Below, one piece after another: positions 2,765 to 41,782 of a DNA stretch of 64,000 nucleotides. The notes beneath the pieces were generated by a model. It had not been told where the DNA came from and did no database searches. It saw nothing but the letters and a program-made list of their open reading frames with translations. The position numbers were made by a program, and so were the translations under genes. This DNA is from Candidatus Omnitrophota bacterium (GTDB lineage Bacteria; Omnitrophota; Omnitrophia; Omnitrophales; Aquincolibacteriaceae): contig JAFGHI010000025.1 in assembly GCA_016930235.1 (NCBI GenBank), forward strand, positions 16,437-80,436, given 5' to 3'. Numbering within the stretch: the first letter of the stretch is position 1; the number at the start of each line of letters is the position of its first letter.

Positions 2765-4294
2765 TCACACATGGTCCGATTGTAATTCATTTGAGTATTC
2801 ATATGTCTGTTGAATGTCGTCTTTCTTTTTTGTTTTTGGTTGATGCCTAAACAACATATCAATAATTTCTTGCACCAACGTACGATCGGCCCAATATAAA
2901 GTCAGAAGATAAACACTACCACCAACAGCAGATAAAATGGCTAATTTCAACGCGTAGAGTTCCCGCATAACGTTCATCTGCCCCATACCATACTTCGATA
3001 AAACAATTATGCTCGACATGGCTACGCATGCAATGAAAGTCGATTTAATTCGAATAACGAGTTCTCTCAGTCGGTAATCAACGATTCGTTTTACAAGATA
3101 GAGATTGATGGGTACAAAAATTAACGAAGTCAGAATCATAGCATAAACTGCACCCTCGGCACCCCACACATAGGCGAACCCGATTAAAACAGGCAATCGA
3201 AAAATAACACGGGCCAGATTTAATCGAAATTGATAGTCCGGCTTACCGCATCCCATAAATATTGGCCATGAACTTGCACCTAATGGACTAATGATCTGCA
3301 CAATTCCGAATAATTGCATGAGCGGGATCATCGGCACCCATTTCGCTCCATAAATAGTCAAAACAATCTCCTCTGCCGCCAGAATAATGAAAAAACTGAA
3401 CGGAAATGAAAGGCACGATATGAAACTGACGATTTTTAAAAAGGTCTTTCGAACCGTTGCAAGATTGTTCTGAATCGCAGCATAGGCGGGGAACATCACA
3501 CGGGAAATAAGCTGGGTGAAATGACTGTTAATAAAATTACCGATGTTGGACGCTAACGCAAAATACCCCAGAATAGTCGTCCCCAGCATTTTTCCGACTA
3601 CAATATTGTTCATGTTATCCATCACATAACTCAGAATCGAGAGCCCGACTATAAATTTGCCGAAACTAAATAATTCTTTAGCCGCTTTCTTCTCATATTG
3701 AAATTTGACACGATACCCTGAAGAGAAGAACAGCAAGATGACCATGACCACGCCCTTAATGATATAAGCCCACACCAGACTCCAAATTGTCGGCGATATT
3801 AATGCAAAGGAAATTGCACAAATGGAATTGACAAAAGAACTGGCAAGGCGAATAAACGAAATCGTCCGAAACTTCATCCTTCTTGTTAAAAGCGCCGAAG
3901 GTACTTTCCCAAAACTATTGATGACGAAAATGATACCCAACGCCTGGACCACAACGGTGACTTCAGGATTTCCGAAAAATTTACCGGCTAATGGTGCCAA
4001 CAGCATACACAAACTAAAAACAACAACGCCAAAAAATAAGATAACGGAGAATGCCGTGTGGTTGGCAATGTCACGACTGTCTTTGCGTTGAATGAGCCCT
4101 GAATCGATACCAAAACTCTGGAAGATCCCTAACCCATCAATCAAGATAAACGCCATAGCAAACAACCCAAAAACAGAAGGCTCAAGAATCCTCGCTAGAA
4201 TGGCAAAAGTCACCACCGACGACATCTTTTGAGTTATTTTGACAATCATCATCCACTTCACGCCCGATACAGCTTTTTGCTTAAGACCTTTCAT
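2765..4294 (-). CDS. Wzx-type oligosaccharide flippase (MOP/polysaccharide biosynthesis protein family)
   Basis: 509 aa, about 12-14 predicted hydrophobic helices, Wzx-like length and composition. It sits among GT genes. Confidence 0.75.
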   Translation of the reverse strand: MKGLKQKAVSGVKWMMIVKITQKMSSVVTFAILARILEPSVFGLFAMAFILIDGLGIFQSFGIDSGLIQRKDSRDIANHTAFSVILFFGVVVFSLCMLLAPLAGKFFGNPEVTVVVQALGIIFVINSFGKVPSALLTRRMKFRTISFIRLASSFVNSICAISFALISPTIWSLVWAYIIKGVVMVILLFFSSGYRVKFQYEKKAAKELFSFGKFIVGLSILSYVMDNMNNIVVGKMLGTTILGYFALASNIGNFINSHFTQLISRVMFPAYAAIQNNLATVRKTFLKIVSFISCLSFPFSFFIILAAEEIVLTIYGAKWVPMIPLMQLFGIVQIISPLGASSWPIFMGCGKPDYQFRLNLARVIFRLPVLIGFAYVWGAEGAVYAMILTSLIFVPINLYLVKRIVDYRLRELVIRIKSTFIACVAMSSIIVLSKYGMGQMNVMRELYALKLAILSAVGGSVYLLTLYWADRTLVQEIIDMLFRHQPKTKKKDDIQQTYEYSNELQSDHV

Positions 4295-4446: not shown

Positions 4447-5478
4447 TCACCCCACGGTTACGACCTCGCACTGCTTTTTGTCTTCCTCTACAATCGCTGC
4501 TTTCGCCAGATCTCTTGAACCTTGATTGAATCCAACAAGATAAATGACAGCGCCCGTAACAGCCATTAACACCATCAAAGAATAATTGACGATCGAAAAC
4601 AAAAAAGCATTCTCCGGGAGTACCCCTACCAGCCCAAGGAAGTAAACAAATCCATTTTCCCGTATACCGATCCCATTGACTGTGATCGGAAGCATCGTAA
4701 GCGTTACGACCAGCATGGTCATTACCGAGACTGTCGCGAAACTCAAATCGAACCCGAAAGCCTTGGCAACTAAAAAATACCGAAGAAAAACAAACAACTG
4801 CATGACTAATGAAATCAGAAAAGCTTCCAAAATGACCCCATGCTGATTTCGATACGCCCGCAAAGTTTCAACGGCCTTTCCAATAACGGTAATCCTCTTC
4901 CCGAGTTTCTCAATCCACGCGCTTGAACTCATCAACCCATACCCTAAGATCATCGCTCCGATTAATAGAACGCTGAAAAACACCACATTCCCCCTCGATA
5001 TGTTAAAGATCTTCATCAGCGTGCCTGACAGCGATAAACAAATAGCCGCCAAAACCAGTATGGCCACTGTTCCAATGAGCCGGCCAATTAAGACGATGGT
5101 CATCGAACGCGTCTTGCCTACACCGTATTTGGACATCGAGTACGCCCGCACAAAATCACCGCCGATAATCGTCGGTAGAAAGTGACCGAAAAAATAACCG
5201 ATCATGTAACATTTCAGTGTATAGCGATATGGAACCTGAGCTCCGTTCGCGTGAAGAAGCCGCTTCCATCTCAGTGAATGCAAGGCAAACAGTCCCCACA
5301 TGGCAACATAGCCCGCAAAACACCATTCCCAGCGAATACTTTTAAAAACCTCTGTAAGATCCGCCCAATTCAGGTTGCGGATTAAAAACCCAATTAAAAT
5401 CAGGCTTATGCCGAGCTTTAATACCCATGAACGATGCCGAACTTTGTCTATCCACGCTTTTACCCCAGTCAAAATCAT
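4447..5478 (-). CDS. Flippase-like / lysylphosphatidylglycerol-synthase TM-region family (UPF0104) membrane protein
   Basis: 343 aa polytopic membrane protein. The N-terminus has RHRSWVLKLGISLILIGFLI...DL..V; this family is commonly paired with GT2 genes in EPS loci. Confidence 0.6.
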   Translation of the reverse strand: MILTGVKAWIDKVRHRSWVLKLGISLILIGFLIRNLNWADLTEVFKSIRWEWCFAGYVAMWGLFALHSLRWKRLLHANGAQVPYRYTLKCYMIGYFFGHFLPTIIGGDFVRAYSMSKYGVGKTRSMTIVLIGRLIGTVAILVLAAICLSLSGTLMKIFNISRGNVVFFSVLLIGAMILGYGLMSSSAWIEKLGKRITVIGKAVETLRAYRNQHGVILEAFLISLVMQLFVFLRYFLVAKAFGFDLSFATVSVMTMLVVTLTMLPITVNGIGIRENGFVYFLGLVGVLPENAFLFSIVNYSLMVLMAVTGAVIYLVGFNQGSRDLAKAAIVEEDKKQCEVVTVG

Positions 5479-5514
5479 TGATCGGAAACCTTCCTGGACA
5501 AATCCTCTACTTAA

Positions 5515-6327
5515 TCATGTCACCATAAATCCAAAGATAAAAATCGATGCCTGAACTGCGCGCACAAACGCTACGGACTCATGAATCTTAATCCTTTCCC
5601 GCATTTCAACCAAAGCGCTCACAACGGACCATATCGAAAAAACAATTGCGAGTTCAAAAAAGACCGGCTTTAAAAATGCCGGACTCATGAGAAACAAAAG
5701 GAAATCCTGAAACCCTTCAATATGGTGTATCGCCACCCCCAGACGCCCGACCTTTAAAAAAGGCAGTGAATATCCGTAAAGCTTCGAAGAAAAAGGCCAA
5801 AACAAAGGCACACCATAAGCGCTGAACATATCGAGAATCACGTGGGTGGAATAAGCCAAGAAGCTGAGAGCGAAGAGACGTAGCTCCTGTGACTTTTCTC
5901 GTATAAATTTTGAAATTCGAATCTCGAAACTCGAAACAAATCCGAATAAATCAAATCCTAATATCGAAACGGTTCTTTTGGAAGCAAGCCTATTCGCCAA
6001 ACTCCGGCATTTTTTATTATTGCCTTCTTCGGATTTCTGATTTGCTTCGAAATTCGGATTTCGGATTTCGGATTTAAGGCTCTTGACAAAGTGATATCCC
6101 CCTACAATCATGAAGGCTACGATGAAAGCAGCCGCCAGACTATGGGAAGGTCCTCGGTGAAACCGTGCTGCCTGTTGGATGAAAAGCCCGGGGAGAAAAT
6201 CAAAATCGGCTAGAGCGGCGAGCAGGACAAAAAAGAGAAGGTAGGGCCATCTCGTTTTCCGGTCCTTTTGTTTTGCAAAACAATAAACCGAATAACCCGC
6301 AAACGAATGTATCACCGGTAATGGCAT
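5515..6327 (-). CDS. DUF457/YdjM-type membrane-bound metal-dependent hydrolase carrying an in-frame ~190-nt repeat-element insertion
   Basis: HRGPSHSL and YSTHVILDMFSAYGVPLFWP match the YdjM motifs HRGFTHSL and YLSHILADM..GVPLLWP. The protein is 270 aa versus about 190 aa expected for the family. The extra ~63 residues (EIRNPNFEANQ...FIREKSQE) are encoded exactly by the family-1 repeat at 5883-6075. Confidence 0.7.
   Translation of the reverse strand: MPLPVIHSFAGYSVYCFAKQKDRKTRWPYLLFFVLLAALADFDFLPGLFIQQAARFHRGPSHSLAAAFIVAFMIVGGYHFVKSLKSEIRNPNFEANQKSEEGNNKKCRSLANRLASKRTVSILGFDLFGFVSSFEIRISKFIREKSQELRLFALSFLAYSTHVILDMFSAYGVPLFWPFSSKLYGYSLPFLKVGRLGVAIHHIEGFQDFLLFLMSPAFLKPVFFELAIVFSIWSVVSALVEMRERIKIHESVAFVRAVQASIFIFGFMVT
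5883..6075. mobile_element. Family-1 inverted-repeat miniature element, copy A, inserted in-frame inside the DUF457 gene
   Basis: Left arm gaaattcgaatctcgaaactcgaaacaaatccgaata... and right arm ...cttcgaaattcggatttcggatttcggattt are inverted copies of the cgaaat/tcggattt heptamer arrays seen at 6985, 8212, 10845 and 41617. Confidence 0.6.
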
Positions 6328-6333
6328 AGCGCA

Positions 6334-6792
6334 TCATACCCCCCGAAAAGGTTCGTGAGACGATGAACTCGTCCCGCTCAGAACCGGTGATTCGGAGAAA
6401 CGGCGAGACGGCGATTTAATGACCCACTTATCCGCACTTTCTATCATCATGACAATTTGACCCATGATACGATCCGTTTCCTCTTCAAGATGTTCTGCCT
6501 CTTCCTTTGTAATATAATTACATCTCCTTGCGATTTCAGACCATACTTGTGTTTCGCAAGCTTCTGTCTCAGCATCGCTGAGCTTACTTATGAATGCCGC
6601 TTTATACCGGCGCTTCCGCCAAGCTTCTGCCAAGTTTGAACAAACCGACCTCGAAGACCTTTTCATTTGATCCGTCAAAGAATATTTTTCCTCACTCGGA
6701 AATCTCTTCGTTATTCGAAATATTTCCATTGCCATATTCATTGCACGATCATAAACATTAAGCTCTTTATAACTCGATATTATCTTCCCCAT
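6334..6792 (-). CDS. Four-helix-bundle protein (TIGR02436, '23S rRNA intervening-sequence protein' family), copy 1
   Basis: LTDQMKRSSRSVCSNLAEAW matches the family core QLxRAAxSIxxNIAEG, and ETEACETQVWSEIARRCNYI matches the C-terminal helix. About 30 aa C-terminal extension. Its stop is 6 nt from the DUF457 start. Confidence 0.8.
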   Translation of the reverse strand: MGKIISSYKELNVYDRAMNMAMEIFRITKRFPSEEKYSLTDQMKRSSRSVCSNLAEAWRKRRYKAAFISKLSDAETEACETQVWSEIARRCNYITKEEAEHLEEETDRIMGQIVMMIESADKWVIKSPSRRFSESPVLSGTSSSSHEPFRGV

Positions 6793-6799
6793 CTCTTTT

Positions 6800-6960
6800 C
6801 CCGTTGCGCCGCTTCTCCGTCTCTCCGGCTCACCCGCTCTCGTCTCTCGCCCCTTGCCCCTGCTCTTTCACCGGTTCTTCGTTTCGCCTACCCCCGTCTC
6901 GTGTCTCTCGCCCCTTGCACCTGCTCTTGCCCCTGCCCCCTTAGGGAATCATTTCTTGAG
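6800..6960. repeat. CT-rich imperfect tandem direct repeat, two copies about 58 bp apart, core ctctcgccccttgc(c/a)cctgctctt
   Basis: Read directly: ccgctctcgtctctcgccccttgcccctgctctt at about 6832-6866 and ccgtctcgtgtctctcgccccttgcacctgctctt at about 6890-6925. Confidence 0.6.
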
Positions 6961-6984
6961 AACTAAGAACACGACCTCTTATAA

Positions 6985-7170
6985 ATCCGAATCCCGAAAT
7001 CCTAAGCACGAAACAAATTCGAATATCGAAATTCAAACAAAACCAAACTCTTCATTATCTTAAACACACATTGCATTTCTTTGCTTTTTTCTTTGCCGCA
7101 ATGTTTTATATTTATCTTTCTTATTTCTGATTTCGATATTGCTTCGGATTTCGATATTCGTATTTCGAAT
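6985..7170. mobile_element. Family-1 miniature element, copy B (arms plus about 90-bp spacer; internal-deletion derivative)
   Basis: Left arm atccgaatcccgaaatcctaagcacgaaacaaattcgaatatcgaaattcaaacaaaacc and right arm ttatttctgatttcgatattgcttcggatttcgatattcgtatttcgaattt. The spacer reverse complement reads ttgcggcaaagaaaaaagcaaag..., a degraded 4HB start (MAA.KK..). The right end abuts the BY-kinase stop codon at 7171. Confidence 0.6.
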
Positions 7171-8157
7171 TTACAGCCTTTGTTCCGTGTTCTTAGTCCT
7201 TTCTTTCTTCAGCACTGCCTTTTCCCACCAGCCCTGGAACCGCTCTTCCATATCCTTCAAATTAAAGCCGGCCCGCTTAAAATGATAATGAGCACGGTTG
7301 CGGCCCTCATCACTATATTCATCGTAATAGTTGTAATAGCGGTAGTCGGGCGATGAAAACTCCACATTGGTAAGAACATAACCAAGCATCTTGGCCCCGG
7401 CCTGTTTGAATAAAACCTGGGCATGAGAAATGACACTCTTGGGCGTCCTTCCGACCTGGATCACGAATAAAACACCATCCACCTCTTTGCCCAAGATTCC
7501 GGCATCCGCCACGGACATGATCGGAGGCGAATCAATGATGATGTAATCAAAGTGATGACGAAGTTCCCGTATGAAATACTGCAGCTTTGAAGAGCTCACA
7601 AGTTCGGCGGATTTCCGGGTCGCTTCCCCTCTCGGGATAATCACAAGATTCTTTAAGGAATTCTTGCACATAACCTGCTTTGGATTCAAATCCTCACGAA
7701 GCAGCTCAGTCAGTCCCTTCTTCTTGTCACCAAAACCCATATAATCGGAAATGTTCCCGCGTCTCAAGTCGGCATCAATCAAGGCCACTCGCGCTTCGCC
7801 GTTCTCGGCCAGAGAAAGAGCCAAGTTTGTCGCGGTCACCGTCTTCCCCTCTGAGTGAATGGAACTGGAAACGAGAATCACTTGTGCCTGCTGTTTCGTC
7901 AGCTGCGCCTTCAAGGAGGTGCGAAACATCCTGTATTGCTCGGCCAGCATGGAGTCCGGAAACCTTAGCATGATCAACCGACTGTCCGGGTTTGTATTTT
8001 TAATTGTCGTAATCCCACGCTCAAAAGATGAAACATTGTCAACGGCTTCATCTTCATGTGCCGGAAGTCGCAACCCCGGACTGCCATCAGAACCAGCGGC
8101 TTTCGCCTGGTCCCTTTCCTCTTGTAGTTTTTCAAGTGCTTTCGTGTATTTACTCAT
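7171..8157 (-). CDS. BY-family protein tyrosine kinase (CpsD/EpsG-like cytoplasmic ATPase, separate from the co-polymerase)
   Basis: Walker A HSEGKT, Walker A' ALIDADLRRG, Walker B DYIIIDSPP, and a C-terminal tyrosine cluster YRYYNYYDEY. 328 aa. Confidence 0.85.
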   Translation of the reverse strand: MSKYTKALEKLQEERDQAKAAGSDGSPGLRLPAHEDEAVDNVSSFERGITTIKNTNPDSRLIMLRFPDSMLAEQYRMFRTSLKAQLTKQQAQVILVSSSIHSEGKTVTATNLALSLAENGEARVALIDADLRRGNISDYMGFGDKKKGLTELLREDLNPKQVMCKNSLKNLVIIPRGEATRKSAELVSSSKLQYFIRELRHHFDYIIIDSPPIMSVADAGILGKEVDGVLFVIQVGRTPKSVISHAQVLFKQAGAKMLGYVLTNVEFSSPDYRYYNYYDEYSDEGRNRAHYHFKRAGFNLKDMEERFQGWWEKAVLKKERTKNTEQRL

Positions 8158-8211
8158 TTTGGTATGTCTCCTTTATTCCTTTATGATAACTATTTGCTAT
8201 AACTAAACTCG

Positions 8212-8748
8212 TTAAATACGAATCTCGAAACTCGAAATCCGAAACAAATTCGAATATCGAAATACAAATAAAACAAATAACACTAAAACAATACTCGCTT
8301 GTTCCTTCAGATTGACTTTCGTACAATAGAACCGAAAATGTTCATCAATTCCGTCGATTCTTGAATCAATGACTGCACTTCTTTTTCTAAACCGTTCGTA
8401 CAAACGCCCTCCAAAAGTCGAAGCCAATAACGGCTTTCTTTTGCCTCTTTCCTGCAGATCGTGATACGCATGCCAAAATCTTTTTTCCCTAACGACTCGT
8501 TGGCTTCGATATAGTTTGCGCCAACAGAGCCGGAGGCCCTCAATAACTGTCGCATATCATCCTGCACAATCCAGGACTTGTTCGCCTTCGATAATAGATC
8601 GCGCACTTGTACGGCAAATTTATAAGTCCGTTCCTCTAAATCGTATTTCTTTTCTTTTTTATCCGCTGCCATAACGATTTCGTTTTCTCTTTCTTATTTC
8701 GAATTTCGAAATTCCTTCGGATTTCGTGATTCGGATTTCGTATTTTCT
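8212..8748. mobile_element. Family-1 composite element, copy C: inverted heptamer-repeat arms flanking an intact four-helix-bundle gene
   Basis: Left arm 8212-8285 (cgaatctcgaaactcgaaatccgaaacaaattcgaatatcgaaatacaaataaaac) and right arm 8690-8748 (ttatttcgaatttcgaaattccttcggatttcgtgattcggatttcg) are inverted relative to each other and enclose ORF 8307..8672. Confidence 0.6.
8307..8672 (-). CDS. Four-helix-bundle protein (TIGR02436 family), copy 2, carried inside the family-1 element
   Basis: 121 aa. DDMRQLLRASGSVGANYIEANE and KDFGMRITICRKEAKESRYWLRLL match the family's two conserved helices. Confidence 0.85.
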   Translation of the reverse strand: MAADKKEKKYDLEERTYKFAVQVRDLLSKANKSWIVQDDMRQLLRASGSVGANYIEANESLGKKDFGMRITICRKEAKESRYWLRLLEGVCTNGLEKEVQSLIQESTELMNIFGSIVRKSI

Positions 8749-8767
8749 GCTGTTGCGCCTACTTCGG

Positions 8768-9586
8768 TTATCCGTGTCGAATCGTCGTCATGGCATCGCG
8801 TACGATCGCCTCATCGATTTTCTTGGTTTCGGCGATATAGCCCGCCAGGAGCGAATGATCACACAGATTATTAATCACTCGCGGGATCCCTTTGGTGAAT
8901 TCATAAATCAATCGATAAGATCCTTCCGGAAAAAGCCCCGAATAATCTTCGCCGTTGAGCTTGGCATGGTTTAAGCGATGGACGATGTAATTCTTCGTGT
9001 CTTCCGGACTTAACGCATTCAGATGATACTGAATCGATATCCTTTGTTTTAACTGGGCCAAACTCGACAACTCAAGCTTTCTTCGCAGTTCCGGCTGGCC
9101 CAACAAGATAATTTGGATCAATTTCTCCTTTTCGGTCTCTAAGTTTGAGAGCATTCTTACCTCTTCGAGGCAGGCCGGGCTCAGGTTCTGTGCTTCGTCG
9201 ATCATGAGAACCACATTCTGGTCGGAAGCCATCTGCTCTAAAAGATAATTATTGAGCTGAATCAGTAACTTATCTTTTGAACCATTCCGGTAATGGATGC
9301 CCAAATCTTCCATGATGAGCGTCAGAATACCTTTCGGACTTATCGTCGTATTGGTCACCAGCGCTGTTTTTACATCGCGGTCCAACTTCCGTAAAAGCGT
9401 CCGTGCAATGGTTGTTTTACCGGCACCCACTTCGCCGGTAATCACCACAAAACCCTTTCGCTGCCGAATCGCAAAGAGAAGCGCATCCAGGGCCGTTTTA
9501 TGTCCCAAGGATTCAAAGAAAAAACCTGAATCGGGCGTCTGGTTGAATGGATTTTCCTTAAATCCAAAAAATTTGTTATACACCAC
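8768..9586 (-). CDS. ExeA-like AAA ATPase (putative secretion ATPase of the EPS/PEP-CTERM locus type)
   Basis: 272 aa. P-loop VITGEVGAGKTTIARTLL, and DEAQNL as the Walker B region. Its position between the co-polymerase and the BY-kinase matches the known PEP-CTERM-locus arrangement. Confidence 0.75.
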   Translation of the reverse strand: MVYNKFFGFKENPFNQTPDSGFFFESLGHKTALDALLFAIRQRKGFVVITGEVGAGKTTIARTLLRKLDRDVKTALVTNTTISPKGILTLIMEDLGIHYRNGSKDKLLIQLNNYLLEQMASDQNVVLMIDEAQNLSPACLEEVRMLSNLETEKEKLIQIILLGQPELRRKLELSSLAQLKQRISIQYHLNALSPEDTKNYIVHRLNHAKLNGEDYSGLFPEGSYRLIYEFTKGIPRVINNLCDHSLLAGYIAETKKIDEAIVRDAMTTIRHG

Positions 9587-10790
9587 TTCCGGCCTTTAAC
9601 CTTTCTCCGAGAATCAGTTCCTCGGGACGAATCGTTGCGATCGCTCCGAAAATCGGAAGATCGAGTAGATTTCTCGCCTCTTCCAGATTCCGGATCGAGT
9701 TATCGCTCAGTTCGATCAGGTAAATGATGATGAGCCCCAAGGCCACTCCGACAATCAAGCCGCCGATAAAAAAGAGTGTCTTATTGGGTTTGACGGGCTC
9801 GAGCGGCAGCCTCGCCGGTTCCAAAATCCTGAATTTTGTCCCGCTTTCCGAATCTTCCAGCGTCTGGGACATTTTTGCCGTCTCCAGTTTCTGTAAAAGC
9901 CTTTGATAGATCTCGGCATTGACCGCATAATTTCTCTGCAGTTTCGCCAATTGCTGTTCCTGATAGGGCACGCTCGAGACCATTTTAGCGTATTGTTCGG
10001 GCTTGATTTCCAAGCCTTGGACTTCAGCCTGCGCCAAGAAAGCATCGCGCTGCTGTTCCAACTGGCCGATCATATTACGGACCTGAATCACACGCGGATG
10101 GGCCTCGGTGTTATCCACCAGCAGCTGATTCAATTCCATTTTTAAAGCCACAAGCTGTTCGTTCAGTCTCGTCGCAATCGGCAGCGAGGACATATACACC
10201 TCACGAAACTCCCGGAGGGCATTTTCGGATTCCTCAAGCTTCACCCGGTAAGTTTCGAGTTGATCGTCAATGAAACGAATCGCGCTGTTTGCTTCAAGAT
10301 CCGCAGAGGTAATATTCCCCCCAATAATGATGTCGGCCAGCGTCTTCACAATCAGTTGGGCCTTTTTCGGGTCCGGGCCCTCGTAGGAGATCGTAATCAT
10401 GTCCGCCCCGCGGAGTTTGATATCAATCTTCTTTCTAAGATTCCGAATAAGCCGATCCCTCTGGATGGGCGTAATTGCCTTCTTATCCAACACTAATTTC
10501 TCAATCAGCAAAGTCAGCCGCTCCCAAGATAAAAGTTCCTCCCGAAGCGTACTCATCCTTGCCCTCATCGAGGGTGAAATCGCAAGCCCGCGAATCAAAG
10601 GGTTCAAAATAGTCTCGCTTTCAACCAGGAGGACGGTCTCAGCCCTATAAATTTTGGGCAGCGTAAAAGCCATCAAAAGCGCAATGACGACCGATACAAT
10701 CAGGGCACCAAAAAACCACCCTTTATGCCGGACCCCCATGTAGTAATATTCCCTCAATCTTAATGTTTGTGTCATGTTGTTTAGATTCAT
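9576..10790 (-). CDS. Polysaccharide co-polymerase (Wzz/chain-length determinant, PCP family)
   Basis: 404 aa. N-terminal TM followed by the Wzz motif (PKIYRAETVLLVE), a long coiled-coil periplasmic region, and a C-terminal TM LFFIGGLIVGVALGLIIIYLIE. Confidence 0.8.
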   Translation of the reverse strand: MNLNNMTQTLRLREYYYMGVRHKGWFFGALIVSVVIALLMAFTLPKIYRAETVLLVESETILNPLIRGLAISPSMRARMSTLREELLSWERLTLLIEKLVLDKKAITPIQRDRLIRNLRKKIDIKLRGADMITISYEGPDPKKAQLIVKTLADIIIGGNITSADLEANSAIRFIDDQLETYRVKLEESENALREFREVYMSSLPIATRLNEQLVALKMELNQLLVDNTEAHPRVIQVRNMIGQLEQQRDAFLAQAEVQGLEIKPEQYAKMVSSVPYQEQQLAKLQRNYAVNAEIYQRLLQKLETAKMSQTLEDSESGTKFRILEPARLPLEPVKPNKTLFFIGGLIVGVALGLIIIYLIELSDNSIRNLEEARNLLDLPIFGAIATIRPEELILGERLKAGSGV

Positions 10791-10844
10791 GTGTTATCTA
10801 TCTCCTTAATTATGATTTCATATATTCATAAAAACTAAGCTTAA

Positions 10845-11040
10845 TAAATTCGAAATGCGAAACACGAAATCCGAAACAAATTCAAATATCGAAATTCAAA
10901 TAAAACCGAACGCTTCATTTCCTTAAATACAAACCGTATTACCTTCTTTTTTATCCACCGCCATATCGTTTTATACTTTTTCTTTTTTATTTCTAATTTC
11001 GAATTTGTTTCGTGCTTCGAAATTCGAATTTCGGATTTTC
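10845..11040. mobile_element. Family-1 miniature element, copy D (deletion derivative), directly adjacent to 4HB copy 3
   Basis: Arms cgaaatgcgaaacacgaaatccgaaacaaattcaaatatcgaaattcaaataaaacc and ttatttctaatttcgaatttgtttcgtgcttcgaaattcgaatttcggatttt. The spacer reverse complement reads ATG GCG GTG GAT AAA AAA GAA GGT... (MAVDKKEG), almost identical to the MAADKKEKK start of 4HB copy 2, then stops. Confidence 0.6.
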
Positions 11041-11064
11041 ATGAACGCGGTACGCGGTCCATGC

Positions 11065-11502
11065 TCAGTGTGTCAACGCACCCTTCCAATCCGAGTGGAG
11101 CTGGGAATAAATACAATAGTTTTCATGTAAACGATGAATGCGCTTGGACAATTCCTGATAGCCTCGAGTAAGCTGATCATATTCGGTTTTTTCGATATAC
11201 CCGCAGTTCAAGGCCAGACCTAAGCACACCAGAACATGATTGGCCGCACCGCACGCGTCTCTTAAATGTCTGCGAAGGACGGTTTCACGACGTCTTTTCG
11301 CCCAGCCTTCGGCGATATGGGCAGAAACACGCCTCGAACTATTCAAAGTTTGACTAAAAAGCGTGTGCCTTTCATAGTCTGGAAATTTCCGGACACATTT
11401 AAATATCTGGCCGGCCAAAGTCATACTGATTTTGTAACTTTCCAAATCCTCGAACCCGCCGATTTCCATCTCCGATGTCAATTCACTTTCACTCGTCATC
11501 AT
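11065..11502 (-). CDS. Four-helix-bundle protein (TIGR02436 family), copy 3
   Basis: 145 aa. FSQTLNSSRRVSAHIAEGW and LRDACGAANHVLVCLGLALNCGYI match the family helices. It is more divergent than copies 1 and 2. Confidence 0.75.
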   Translation of the reverse strand: MMTSESELTSEMEIGGFEDLESYKISMTLAGQIFKCVRKFPDYERHTLFSQTLNSSRRVSAHIAEGWAKRRRETVLRRHLRDACGAANHVLVCLGLALNCGYIEKTEYDQLTRGYQELSKRIHRLHENYCIYSQLHSDWKGALTH

Positions 11503-11719
11503 TTCGATTACCCCTCAATCATGTTCCAAAGATTTAAGACAACCCGAAAGACCAGCTTGCCGCCCATTACAATAAGTGGCCAGATGATGAGATTACTATA
11601 GGCTCTCAAGATTGCTTCCCGGCCTCTCTTTAAACTATTCTTCTTTTTCATCGTCTTCCTTTTTCTTCTTGATTCGTTATTAGGCGCTGAAATTCTCTTC
11701 TGCTCCGGAAACGCATCAA

Positions 11720-12757
11720 TTAATCTCCCTTTAAATACCCGTCCTGGCCTCCATAAGCCAATTCGTAAACAGCCGAGGCCTGGAACAGCGGCCCGACCAA
11801 TCTTGAAAAGTTGTTCACAAACTTATCGAAATAACGCTGGTGAACAACAATAGTATCGCCGGGCATCAGCATGAAATCGTTCGCCGAATCCCCTTTGTAG
11901 AGCAATTCTTTTAAATTCACTTTCTTTTTCTCGGCTTCCCCGCTCTCGGTATACTGAGAAGGCCTTATCACATAAACCCGCTTCAAAGCCCCGTCATAAG
12001 TCGGCAGACCTGCCGCCACAACGGCCTCTTTCACCGTGATATTGTCACCCTTCATGGCAAATTTTCCGGGACGATTGACATATCCGAAGATATAGACGGC
12101 TTTACTCCGGTATTCGGAGATCATCACGGCCACTTCGGGATACCGGACAAACTTCTTGAGAGCGCTGACGACATCTGCCTTGAGTTCTTCCTTGGTCTTC
12201 CCTTCGGCCTTAATGTCACCCACAAAGTTGTATTGAATATTTCCCTCCGGATCGATCACAAATCGGCCAGAAAAGTCAGGCTGGTTGCGGACAATGACCG
12301 TCACGACATCATCAATCCCAAGGGTGTAATCAGATCCCTCCCCGATGACTTCGATATAGGGCGAATATTTTGAATAGGGCGAAACTTCAGAGGCCATAAA
12401 AGGATCCTGGTTGGCTGTCTGCTGACCCGGCGGCGGCGGTGTATATTGCGGCTGCCCCATGAATTGATATTGGGCCGACAAATTCCCCTGAGTGTAGGGA
12501 GAATTCATAAAGCTCGCGTATGGGGAAAATTGCGTTGAATAATTGGTACTGTAATTAACCGGCATCACATTCGAATACCCCGGTTGAGTATTCTGGGTCT
12601 GCATCTGTGACGGATCGTTTTCTCCCATATAGAGAAGATCCTCCGCAAAAACAGGGGCCGACAGGATGAATGCGATAAAAACTCCCAAAATGGCGATTTT
12701 AAATATTTTGCTTTGTGATTTCATTTCTTCTTTCCTAACCTTTCGATAATTTTTCAA
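11720..12757 (-). CDS. Polysaccharide export protein (Wza-like; Poly_export plus SLBB domains) with a ~90-aa Q/Y/P/S/N-rich low-complexity insert
   Basis: 345 aa. Signal peptide, then a low-complexity stretch PSQMQTQNTQPGYSNVMPVNYSTNYSTQFSPYASFMNSPYTQGN...YTPPPPGQQ, then a Wza-like core (GDI..EGKTKEELKADVVSALKKF...VAVMISEYRSKAVYIFGYVNRPG...PGDTIVV). Confidence 0.8.
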   Translation of the reverse strand: MKNYRKVRKEEMKSQSKIFKIAILGVFIAFILSAPVFAEDLLYMGENDPSQMQTQNTQPGYSNVMPVNYSTNYSTQFSPYASFMNSPYTQGNLSAQYQFMGQPQYTPPPPGQQTANQDPFMASEVSPYSKYSPYIEVIGEGSDYTLGIDDVVTVIVRNQPDFSGRFVIDPEGNIQYNFVGDIKAEGKTKEELKADVVSALKKFVRYPEVAVMISEYRSKAVYIFGYVNRPGKFAMKGDNITVKEAVVAAGLPTYDGALKRVYVIRPSQYTESGEAEKKKVNLKELLYKGDSANDFMLMPGDTIVVHQRYFDKFVNNFSRLVGPLFQASAVYELAYGGQDGYLKGD

Positions 12758-12960
12758 GACTCATAAACCGTGCTCACGATCTGCTGAAGGGCCTCGAGAT
12801 CTTCTTCCAGATAGATCCGCCAGCCTTTCCAGTCGCGCTTCGGTTTGCGTATTCTTCCGGCCTTTTCCCACCGAATGATGGTTTTGGCCGTGACGCCGAC
12901 TTTCTCGGCAACCTCAGTTATTGTCATTCTCTCTTCAATCACGCTCGTTTCCTCCATCAA
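12754..12960 (-). CDS. Small excisionase/MerR-type HTH DNA-binding protein (putative locus regulator)
   Basis: 68 aa. MTITEVAEKVGVTAKTIIRWEKAGRI is a helix-turn-helix of the excisionase-family DNA-binding domain type. It is the first gene of the export operon. Confidence 0.6.
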   Translation of the reverse strand: MMEETSVIEERMTITEVAEKVGVTAKTIIRWEKAGRIRKPKRDWKGWRIYLEEDLEALQQIVSTVYES

Positions 12961-17536: not shown

Positions 17537-17812
17537 GATTTGCGATTTTGGATTTTAGATTTTGGATTGCGGATTGCCCGTTTGGGCGAAAATCCGAAGT
17601 ATGAAGTTCGAGGTACGAAGTAAGAGGTAAGATGTATGAAATTTCGGATTTGGGATTTTGGATTTTAGATTTTGGATTGCGGATTGCCCGTTTGGGCGAA
17701 TTTAACCCCTCACCCTTTCCCTCTCCCCTTTGGGGAGAGGGCAGAGATGAGGTGATAAATTTGCCTAAGCGTATAATCGAAAATCCAAAATCCGCACTCC
17801 CAAATCTAAAAT
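17537..17812. repeat. Family-2 miniature element, copy E: left arm duplicated in tandem, with internal palindrome ccctctcccctttggggagaggg
   Basis: gattttggattttagattttggattgcggattgcccgtttgggcgaa occurs twice (17547-17592 and 17655-17700). The right arm at about 17776-17812 (tcgaaaatccaaaatccgcactcccaaatctaaaatgg) is inverted. A segment gaagtatgaagttcgaggtacgaagtaagaggtaag is shared with 19888-20008. Confidence 0.6.
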
Positions 17813-27244: not shown

Positions 27245-27390
27245 CTCCTTCGTAACAGACCAAAGACCGAAGACTCAAGACAACAGACCGAATTCTAAAA
27301 AAATACCTTCATATTCAACTTTTTTAAACCCATTTAAATCTTTCTCACCAAAGTTTTTGGTCTTTAGTCTTTGGTCTCCAGTCTTCGGTC
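27245..27390. mobile_element. Family-3 miniature inverted-repeat element (gaccgaa/ttcggtc heptamer arms)
   Basis: Left arm cagaccaaagaccgaagactcaagacaacagaccgaa (27257-27293) and right arm tttggtctttagtctttggtctccagtcttcggtcttc (27350-27387) are inverted, with a spacer of about 57 bp. The element fills the gap between two genes. Confidence 0.55.
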
Positions 27391-27394
27391 TTCA

Positions 27395-41616: not shown

Positions 41617-41782
41617 AAAATCCGAATCTCGAATTTCGAAGCACAAAACAAATACGAATATCGAAATTCAAATAAGGCAAACAAAAGATCTGTGTCCTAT
41701 GCCCTTCGTACCTTGTTTTTTTCTTTCCTATTTCGAATTTTGATATTTCTTCGAATTTCGGGATTCGCGCTTCGGATTTCCC
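41617..41782. mobile_element. Family-1 miniature element, copy G (35 kb away from the other copies)
   Basis: Arms aaaatccgaatctcgaatttcgaagcacaaaacaaatacgaatatcgaaattcaaataagg and ctatttcgaattttgatatttcttcgaatttcgggattcgcgcttcggattt. It abuts the methyltransferase stop at 41788. Confidence 0.55.

Follow-up and report, generated by a model that had tools for sequence, protein, structure and literature searches.

The stretch of DNA considered here is a 64-kb segment (64,000 nucleotides, hereafter the window) of the genome of a Candidatus Omnitrophota bacterium (assembly GCA_016930235.1, contig JAFGHI010000025.1, positions 16,437 to 80,436 of the forward strand). It contains a family of hairpin elements, one copy of which encloses a gene for a small four-helix-bundle protein, while two short copies nearby hold the beginning of that gene. 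The region from 5.9 to 11.1 kb is, by the Pfam content of its genes, a minus-strand polysaccharide-export operon, with products that include a Wzz/GNVR chain-length protein, an AAA_22 ATPase, a ParA/AAA_31 kinase-like protein and a Poly_export/SLBB protein. When an arm profile built from the window's own repeat arms was scanned across the 64 kb, exactly ten arms were found, making up five copies, A to E (Table 1). All five have the same polarity, which agrees with the strand of the adjacent genes, and the gene is present only in copy C.

Table 1. Hairpin copies, coding remnants and cargo gene in the window (ORF, open reading frame)
Feature	Position	Strand	Details
Copy A, short	5906-6076	minus	found by arm profile; within YdjM-family ORF 5515-6327
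Copy B, short, internally deleted	6982-7173	minus	arms 7113-7173 (upstream) and 6982-7040 (downstream); loop 72 nt
Copy C, full element with gene	8213-8746	minus	arms 8687-8746 (upstream) and 8213-8272 (downstream)
Copy D, short, internally deleted	10845-11039	minus	arms 10981-11039 (upstream) and 10845-10905 (downstream); loop 75 nt
Copy E, shorter	41617-41780	minus	loop 42 nt; leader kept, coding remnant unrecognisable
Coding remnant in copy D	10931-10964	minus	first 11-12 codons; ATG at 10962-10964
Decayed coding remnant in copy B	7070-7102	minus	first 11 codons; ATT instead of ATG
Intact cargo gene, PF05635	8307-8672	minus	121 aa; Pfam E = 3.9e-11

In copy C the upstream arm is followed by a purine-rich leader, then by the four-helix-bundle gene and finally by the downstream arm. 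Its arms match the profile with E values of about 4e-15 and 7e-15, and its inverted repeat (I5) spans 51 nt with 80% complementarity; across the window copies the arms are 51–60 nt long and 73–80% complementary. The other four copies are 164–195 nt long, with the size, terminal inverted repeats and multiple occurrence of miniature inverted-repeat transposable elements (MITEs). Folded as sense-strand RNA, copy C forms a terminal stem with a minimum free energy of -155.7 kcal/mol (z = -4.6), and copies D and B reach -50.4 kcal/mol (z = -3.8) and -46.8 kcal/mol (z = -3.75), respectively. The outermost bases of copy B provide the TAA stop codon (7171-7173) of the upstream kinase-like gene (7171-8157, minus); at other loci too (for example L005) the element begins at the stop codon of the gene upstream. 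In a scan against Rfam the hairpins matched no family and no ribosomal RNA (rRNA) was found in the window, the copies therefore not lying in a 23S or 16S helix. Scans for promoters and terminators gave nothing beyond chance level.

The cargo protein belongs to the family annotated as 23S rRNA intervening sequence protein or four-helix-bundle protein, and matches, at 100% identity, an NCBI 'four helix bundle protein' of a Candidatus Omnitrophica metagenome-assembled genome (MAG). It carries the expected residue at all 48 columns (48/48) that are invariant among 20 homologues, and its closest solved structure is PDB 2rld (E = 2e-10). Among the same 20 homologues, which share about 62% identity, the first nine residues are variable and Y10-D11-L12-E13-x-R15-T16 is invariant. 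A paralogue of 84% identity is known from outside the window. Plasmid and phage collections yielded only distant relatives (no more than 41% identity), and no vector was identified in them. Three homologues (P0046, P0103 and P0106) carry N-terminal extensions such as NPKSEYRNSKQIR, which are the translated upstream arm; these are start-codon miscalls caused by the element.

The first-pass annotation had placed the first codons of the cargo gene in the spacers of copies B and D. The copies have the positions and sequences then described, with arm limits now set as in Table 1; the spacer, put at roughly 90 bp, has the shorter loop lengths given there and approaches 90 only if the purine-rich leader is counted. 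The minus-strand loops were aligned locally to the first 20 codons of copy C, with 2000 dinucleotide-preserving shuffles as the null. In copy D the remnant, ATGGCGGTGGATAAAAAAGAAGGTAATACGGTTT, matches the first 35 nt of the gene at 29/35 positions with one gap (score 22; null 10.4 +/- 1.8, maximum 20; p<0.0005). In copy B the remnant, ATTGCGGCAAAGAAAAAAGCAAAGAAATGCAAT, matches the coding start at 26/33 positions without a gap (score 17; null 10.6 +/- 1.8; p=0.0055). Both are collinear with copy C and lie equally far from the upstream arm and from the leader, which is conserved (GAAATAAGAAAGA...). The start codon had been called decayed, which is true of copy B, where ATT occupies the position, and not of copy D, which keeps the ATG at the head of an open 13-codon frame (MAVDKKEGNTVCI*, 10923-10964) closed by TAA at 10923-10925.

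Similarity to the coding sequence had been said to break off after about 8–15 codons, and in both copies it is indeed lost after about 11–12, where the YDLEER motif starts. Both remnants reach the Y-D-L codons, as TGC AAT GTG in copy B and ACG GTT T in copy D, so that B reads K-K-C-N-V and D reads N-T-V where C reads K-K-Y-D-L. The same shuffle test gave no significant remnant in copies A and E (p=0.85 and 0.10). Two further resemblances were set aside: an in-frame match, by eye, between the last codons and stop of the copy D frame and the C-terminus of the copy C gene is not significant and is not claimed, and a closer likeness of the copy B remnant to the paralogue P0002 (AKK rather than EKK) was dropped as it depends on one nucleotide.

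That the likeness is a chance one between A/G-rich, low-complexity stretches was the alternative named at the outset, and it has some appeal in that the region is purine-rich (AAAAAAGAA) and copies A and E are not significant. It is hardly credible, given that the shuffles from which the p values for D and B derive preserve dinucleotide composition, that the matches are collinear at the same arm offset, and that they extend beyond the A/G run to non-A/G positions in ATGGC, GGAT and TACG.TTT.

The remnants lie outside the inverted repeat of copy C, which stops 5 nt ahead of the ATG. Because the repeat ends before the start codon in this lineage, the remnants derive from coding sequence and not from the arm, and sequence that reaches the first invariant codons of the family originates in a coding gene rather than in a hairpin loop. 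This bears on the opposite order of events, in which the hairpin would be ancestral, the four-helix-bundle gene would have been captured into its loop, and the shared codons would be the hairpin's own inner sequence. Many relatives do have the ATG and the next three to four codons (AAATGACCAAAAC) within the inverted repeat, where they form the inner stem by pairing with GTTTTGAACATTT just past the stop codon, and among matches to the arm motif gene-less copies are commoner than gene-bearing ones. In the window's lineage, however, the repeat ends before the ATG and yet the similarity runs 33–35 nt into the coding sequence, as far as the invariant YDL codons.

Truncated copies elsewhere bear on the same question. 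In a locus from Desulfobacteraceae (L011), MTKIKNPKQYDLEE, a short gap and GSILRRSE* stand between the arms, so that both the N- and the C-terminal codons survive around the gap. In L045, an arm followed by 21 codons precedes a complete copy. Two related metagenomic contigs (L001 and L002) carry, apparently at the same intergenic site, a frameshifted full-length element and a 154-nt hairpin respectively, the frameshifted gene of L001 representing a stage in mid-decay. These loci are independent truncated copies, and as such they support an origin by deletion. The coding ends of L011 and the decaying gene of L001 both run counter to gene capture, which is quite improbable; deletion as the direction of change is supported.

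The loops of copies B and D are homologous to each other from end to end (score 29; null 10.5 +/- 2.0), and the homology ends at the element boundaries. Beyond the junction the two loops have about 30 nt in common that are without counterpart in copy C. Since the loops are homologous throughout and the homology ends at the element edges, a single deletion is indicated, after which the short form was copied to two sites. Alternatively, two separate full-length insertions might each have undergone its own deletion at one hotspot, giving B and D independently. Both copies adjoin other PF05635 genes in one operon, and slippage promoted by the hairpin could favour repeated breakpoints; but the full-length alignment of the loops, including the shared post-junction nucleotides, makes this unlikely, and the independent deletions seen elsewhere (L011, L045 and copy E) have junctions unlike that of B and D.

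Copies B and D are thus probably non-autonomous and descended, by internal deletion, from a hairpin element of about 0.5 kb carrying the 121-aa PF05635 gene. In the proposed sequence of events, one ancestral deletion would have taken out the gene from about codon 12 onwards, and its product of about 195 nt, with both arms kept, would later have been copied into two or more intergenic sites within the one minus-strand polysaccharide-export operon. Such deletions may arise through slippage across the hairpin. The first-pass annotation had proposed that the short copies came from the gene-carrying form by internal deletion, which is borne out by the remnants and by the truncated copies elsewhere; its further claim of an evolutionary series within 5 kb went too far. 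Divergence between the copies amounts to 13–36%: copies B and D are 77% identical and the arms are 67–87% identical between copies (13–33% different). Copy C is a relative of B and D rather than their proven parent. The window copies are old and not a fresh series formed in situ.

The arms of the element belong to a family found, with little change in sequence, across many bacterial phyla. They are runs of CGAAAT(C/T)-type heptamers (CGAAATC, CGAATAT, CGAAACAAATT and similar), inverted in the opposite arm. Exact matches to a 23-nt arm motif, GAAACAAATWCRAATATCGAAAT, are present at 30 loci in species-representative genomes with a host GC (guanine plus cytosine) content of 38–65%; these hosts include Betaproteobacteria (Alcaligenaceae), Planctomycetota, Desulfobacterota (Desulfobacterales), Verrucomicrobiota (Chthoniobacterales), Chisholmbacteria of the Candidate Phyla Radiation (CPR), Saganbacteria and others, and the exact-motif copies are mostly gene-less hairpins of about 105–210 nt. 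A second sample was drawn by way of the protein and comprised 80 metagenomic loci, in which 65 subfamily genes were assessed for arms. At least one arm was recognised by the window-only profile at 54/65 of these genes, and the median inverted-repeat score between the sequences upstream and downstream of the gene was 26, compared with 13 for the direct-repeat control. Typical full elements are 470–540 nt long with the ends AAATCCGAAAT...ATTTCGGATTT, and the gene often starts right at the stop codon of the upstream neighbour.

The arms remain AT-rich CGAAAT arrays in hosts of 58–70% GC, and the third-codon GC of the gene follows that of the host (rho 0.88). The latter relation implies that the genes are long-term residents under purifying selection, and the arms are constrained at the sequence level. 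In variant lineages both arms are altered together (CTAAAT/ATTTAG). One short copy, in Chisholmbacteria (L021), lies inside a large-subunit (LSU) rRNA gene (Rfam RF02541, 1166 bits), and the locus exceeds the model span by about 140 nt, which fits the insert of 136 nt; the family thus has a member of the intervening-sequence type inserted in 23S rRNA. Several arrangements are more complex (L026 6487-6573, L032 237-480 and L042 about 2880-3000). Among these, three 32-nt arm units stand in tandem ahead of a single gene, arms that are nested or in tandem are accompanied by another small ORF of unrelated sequence, and a short hairpin is joined directly to the upstream side of a full gene without an upstream arm of its own. 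In a Saganbacteria MAG (L038, about 6396-6418) a single arm, SEILNPKSETNSNIEIQN in translation, stands apparently in frame and with no evident partner in an ORF that looks by eye like a cysteinyl-tRNA synthetase, and in L002 a small PDDEXK_3 (PF13366) ORF (645-1046) lies near a four-helix-bundle element.

Several observations weigh against the reading of copies B and D as mobile, internally deleted derivatives of a transcribed element. The 3' half of their loops has no significant similarity to copy C (p=0.3-0.8), on which the 3' junction therefore cannot be placed. The window copies yielded neither a transposase nor a target-site duplication nor an empty orthologous site, and mobility is deduced from distribution only. 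Among 48 full elements, arm mismatches compatible with G:U pairing on the sense strand (143) are as frequent as A:C mismatches compatible with pairing on the antisense strand only (142), which gives no sign of an RNA-specific stem. The stronger folding of the sense strand in copies B, C and D is not general either: by one reading of the folds, the pattern holds for 10 short copies from elsewhere and fails for 8. Finally, the co-orientation of gene and neighbours (54/62 upstream and 44/61 downstream; p=2e-11) is based on a crude call of the neighbour's strand from its longest ORF.

Target-site duplications are missing from the wider family too. Among 62 non-redundant elements, 2-nt flank repeats were found at 2 (about 3.9 expected) and 3-nt repeats at 1 (about 1 expected), and a TA duplication is not supported, TA-compatible ends being present in 12/62 elements. 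The 121-aa four-helix-bundle protein is the sole product encoded by the full form, and the element has no transposase. The arms may serve as sequence-specific recognition or binding sites for a factor acting in trans, either the encoded protein or some recombinase, and RNase III would cleave the long stem after its transcription, by analogy with rRNA intervening sequences; transcripts bearing the stem are putative RNase III substrates. The family resides mostly outside rRNA, in most cases directly behind a host gene and in the orientation of that gene, and is thus probably transcribed by read-through.

A broader proposal, which at present is rather unlikely, is that the rRNA intervening sequence represents only the members resident in rRNA of a large class of transposase-less mobile hairpins that extends across phyla. 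Their CGAAAT-heptamer arms would be recognised by the element's own pentameric four-helix-bundle protein, a relative of Avd, which would drive copying, or license it, for full and gene-less forms alike, perhaps via an RNA or single-strand intermediate, into transcribed regions immediately downstream of host genes.

Copy A differs from the other copies in its setting, as it is inserted in frame in a gene for a YdjM-family membrane hydrolase. It adds about 57 aa (SLKSEIRNPNFEANQ...FEIRISKFI) which are missing from eight homologues, and the Pfam alignment also shows an inserted stretch. In one homologue, P0122, this loop holds another insert, of about 30 aa. Two more genes of PF05635, from another subfamily (6334-6792 and 11065-11502, both minus), adjoin copies A and B and copy D, respectively. 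The product of the first has a sub-threshold match to the bAvd model PF22296; this gene has an inverted repeat of its own, weak and rich in GC, between about 6347-6411 and 6800-6855 (score 18; null 9.8 +/- 1.5), and is adjoined by 36-nt direct repeats (6837-6872 and 6898-6933). Hairpin repeats built of other heptamers are present at 17641-17812 (GGATTTT-type) and 27263-27392 (AAGACNN-type), the latter resembling the GACAGAT heptamers reported for the Coxiella intervening sequence.

Taken alone, the finding on copies B and D is an ordinary case of deletion derivatives, and its value is as an entry point to the wider family. The origin of intervening sequences and the role of their small ORF have been open questions since the early 1990s (PMC4990558). 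In a limited collection of literature no description was found of the arm family, of operon-resident, heptamer-armed elements of the intervening-sequence type or of their gene-less derivatives; the non-rRNA form of the intervening-sequence element is apparently widespread and undescribed. What emerges is a module of arms plus gene that lives mainly outside rRNA, strongly oriented with host transcription, whose arm sequence holds against host base composition and which has lost its gene time and again, leaving hairpin-only copies that go on spreading. It offers material for experiments: the protein and the heptamer array are both conserved, and full and deleted copies occur as natural pairs. 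The elements also affect annotation, as the hairpins provide stop codons (copy B), inserts within proteins (copy A) and spurious N-terminal extensions.

Among known systems, MITEs such as the Correia elements of Neisseria are short, multi-copy, non-autonomous elements with terminal inverted repeats, derived by internal deletion and found in operons, where they form a hairpin in the transcript. Copies B and D are like them in their shortness, multiple occurrence, inverted repeats, internal deletion and operon location, but differ from them in having no target-site duplication and a parent form without a transposase. REPINs and BIMEs (bacterial interspersed mosaic elements) are inverted doublets that form hairpins in extragenic positions just past stop codons, in many copies and with no target-site duplication, and are mobilised in trans by RAYT. 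The elements described here share the hairpin doublets, the position after stop codons, the lack of target-site duplication and the high copy number, and would likewise be mobilised in trans. In contrast, their arms are tandem heptamers of about 60 nt rather than a single palindrome of about 25–35 nt, and their full form encloses a gene. The palindromic elements of Rickettsia are repeats inserted in frame in protein genes and read through as peptide; copy A is likewise in frame within a protein-coding gene and translated, although it belongs to an unrelated sequence family and is the single such case in the window.

The cargo protein falls in the same four-helix-bundle superfamily as Avd of diversity-generating retroelements, to which PF05635 is related (PMC10053308), but the cargo gene itself has no match to the bAvd model PF22296. 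No reverse transcriptase was found in a Pfam scan of nine flanking genes (4447-12757), a scan that excluded short ORFs such as 12754-12960 and to which no search for template or variable repeats was added; the products of the nine genes are polysaccharide-export, ATPase and membrane proteins.

The closest likeness is to rRNA intervening sequences, which are selfish elements whose stems, formed by inverted repeats, are cleaved by RNase III; they carry a sense-oriented S23p (four-helix-bundle) ORF prone to decay, with heptamer repeats beside its start codon (PMC4990558). S23p-ORF intervening sequences are found in Leptospira, Coxiella, Xanthomonas and Brucella, their origin is unknown, and it was suggested in 1993 that the ORF serves mobility (PMC4990558). 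PF05635 ORFs have also been noted within rRNA insertions of the CPR (PMC11270868). The elements described here have in common with them a terminal inverted-repeat stem around a sense PF05635 ORF, in a unit of about 0.4–0.5 kb, as well as heptamers beside the start codon, a decay-prone ORF and a sporadic distribution; in L021, a short copy with the window's arm sequence lies in an LSU rRNA gene. Within the window, such an ORF is enclosed in the stem of copy C and is missing from B, D and E, with B and D holding its first 11–12 codons only. Unlike rRNA intervening sequences, the window copies stand between, and once inside, protein-coding genes of an mRNA operon, their arms are a conserved CGAAAT-heptamer array common to many phyla, and the arm mismatches give no sign of RNA-specific pairing. 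The wider family and the classical rRNA intervening sequence are objects of one kind, and the family is not confined to rRNA.

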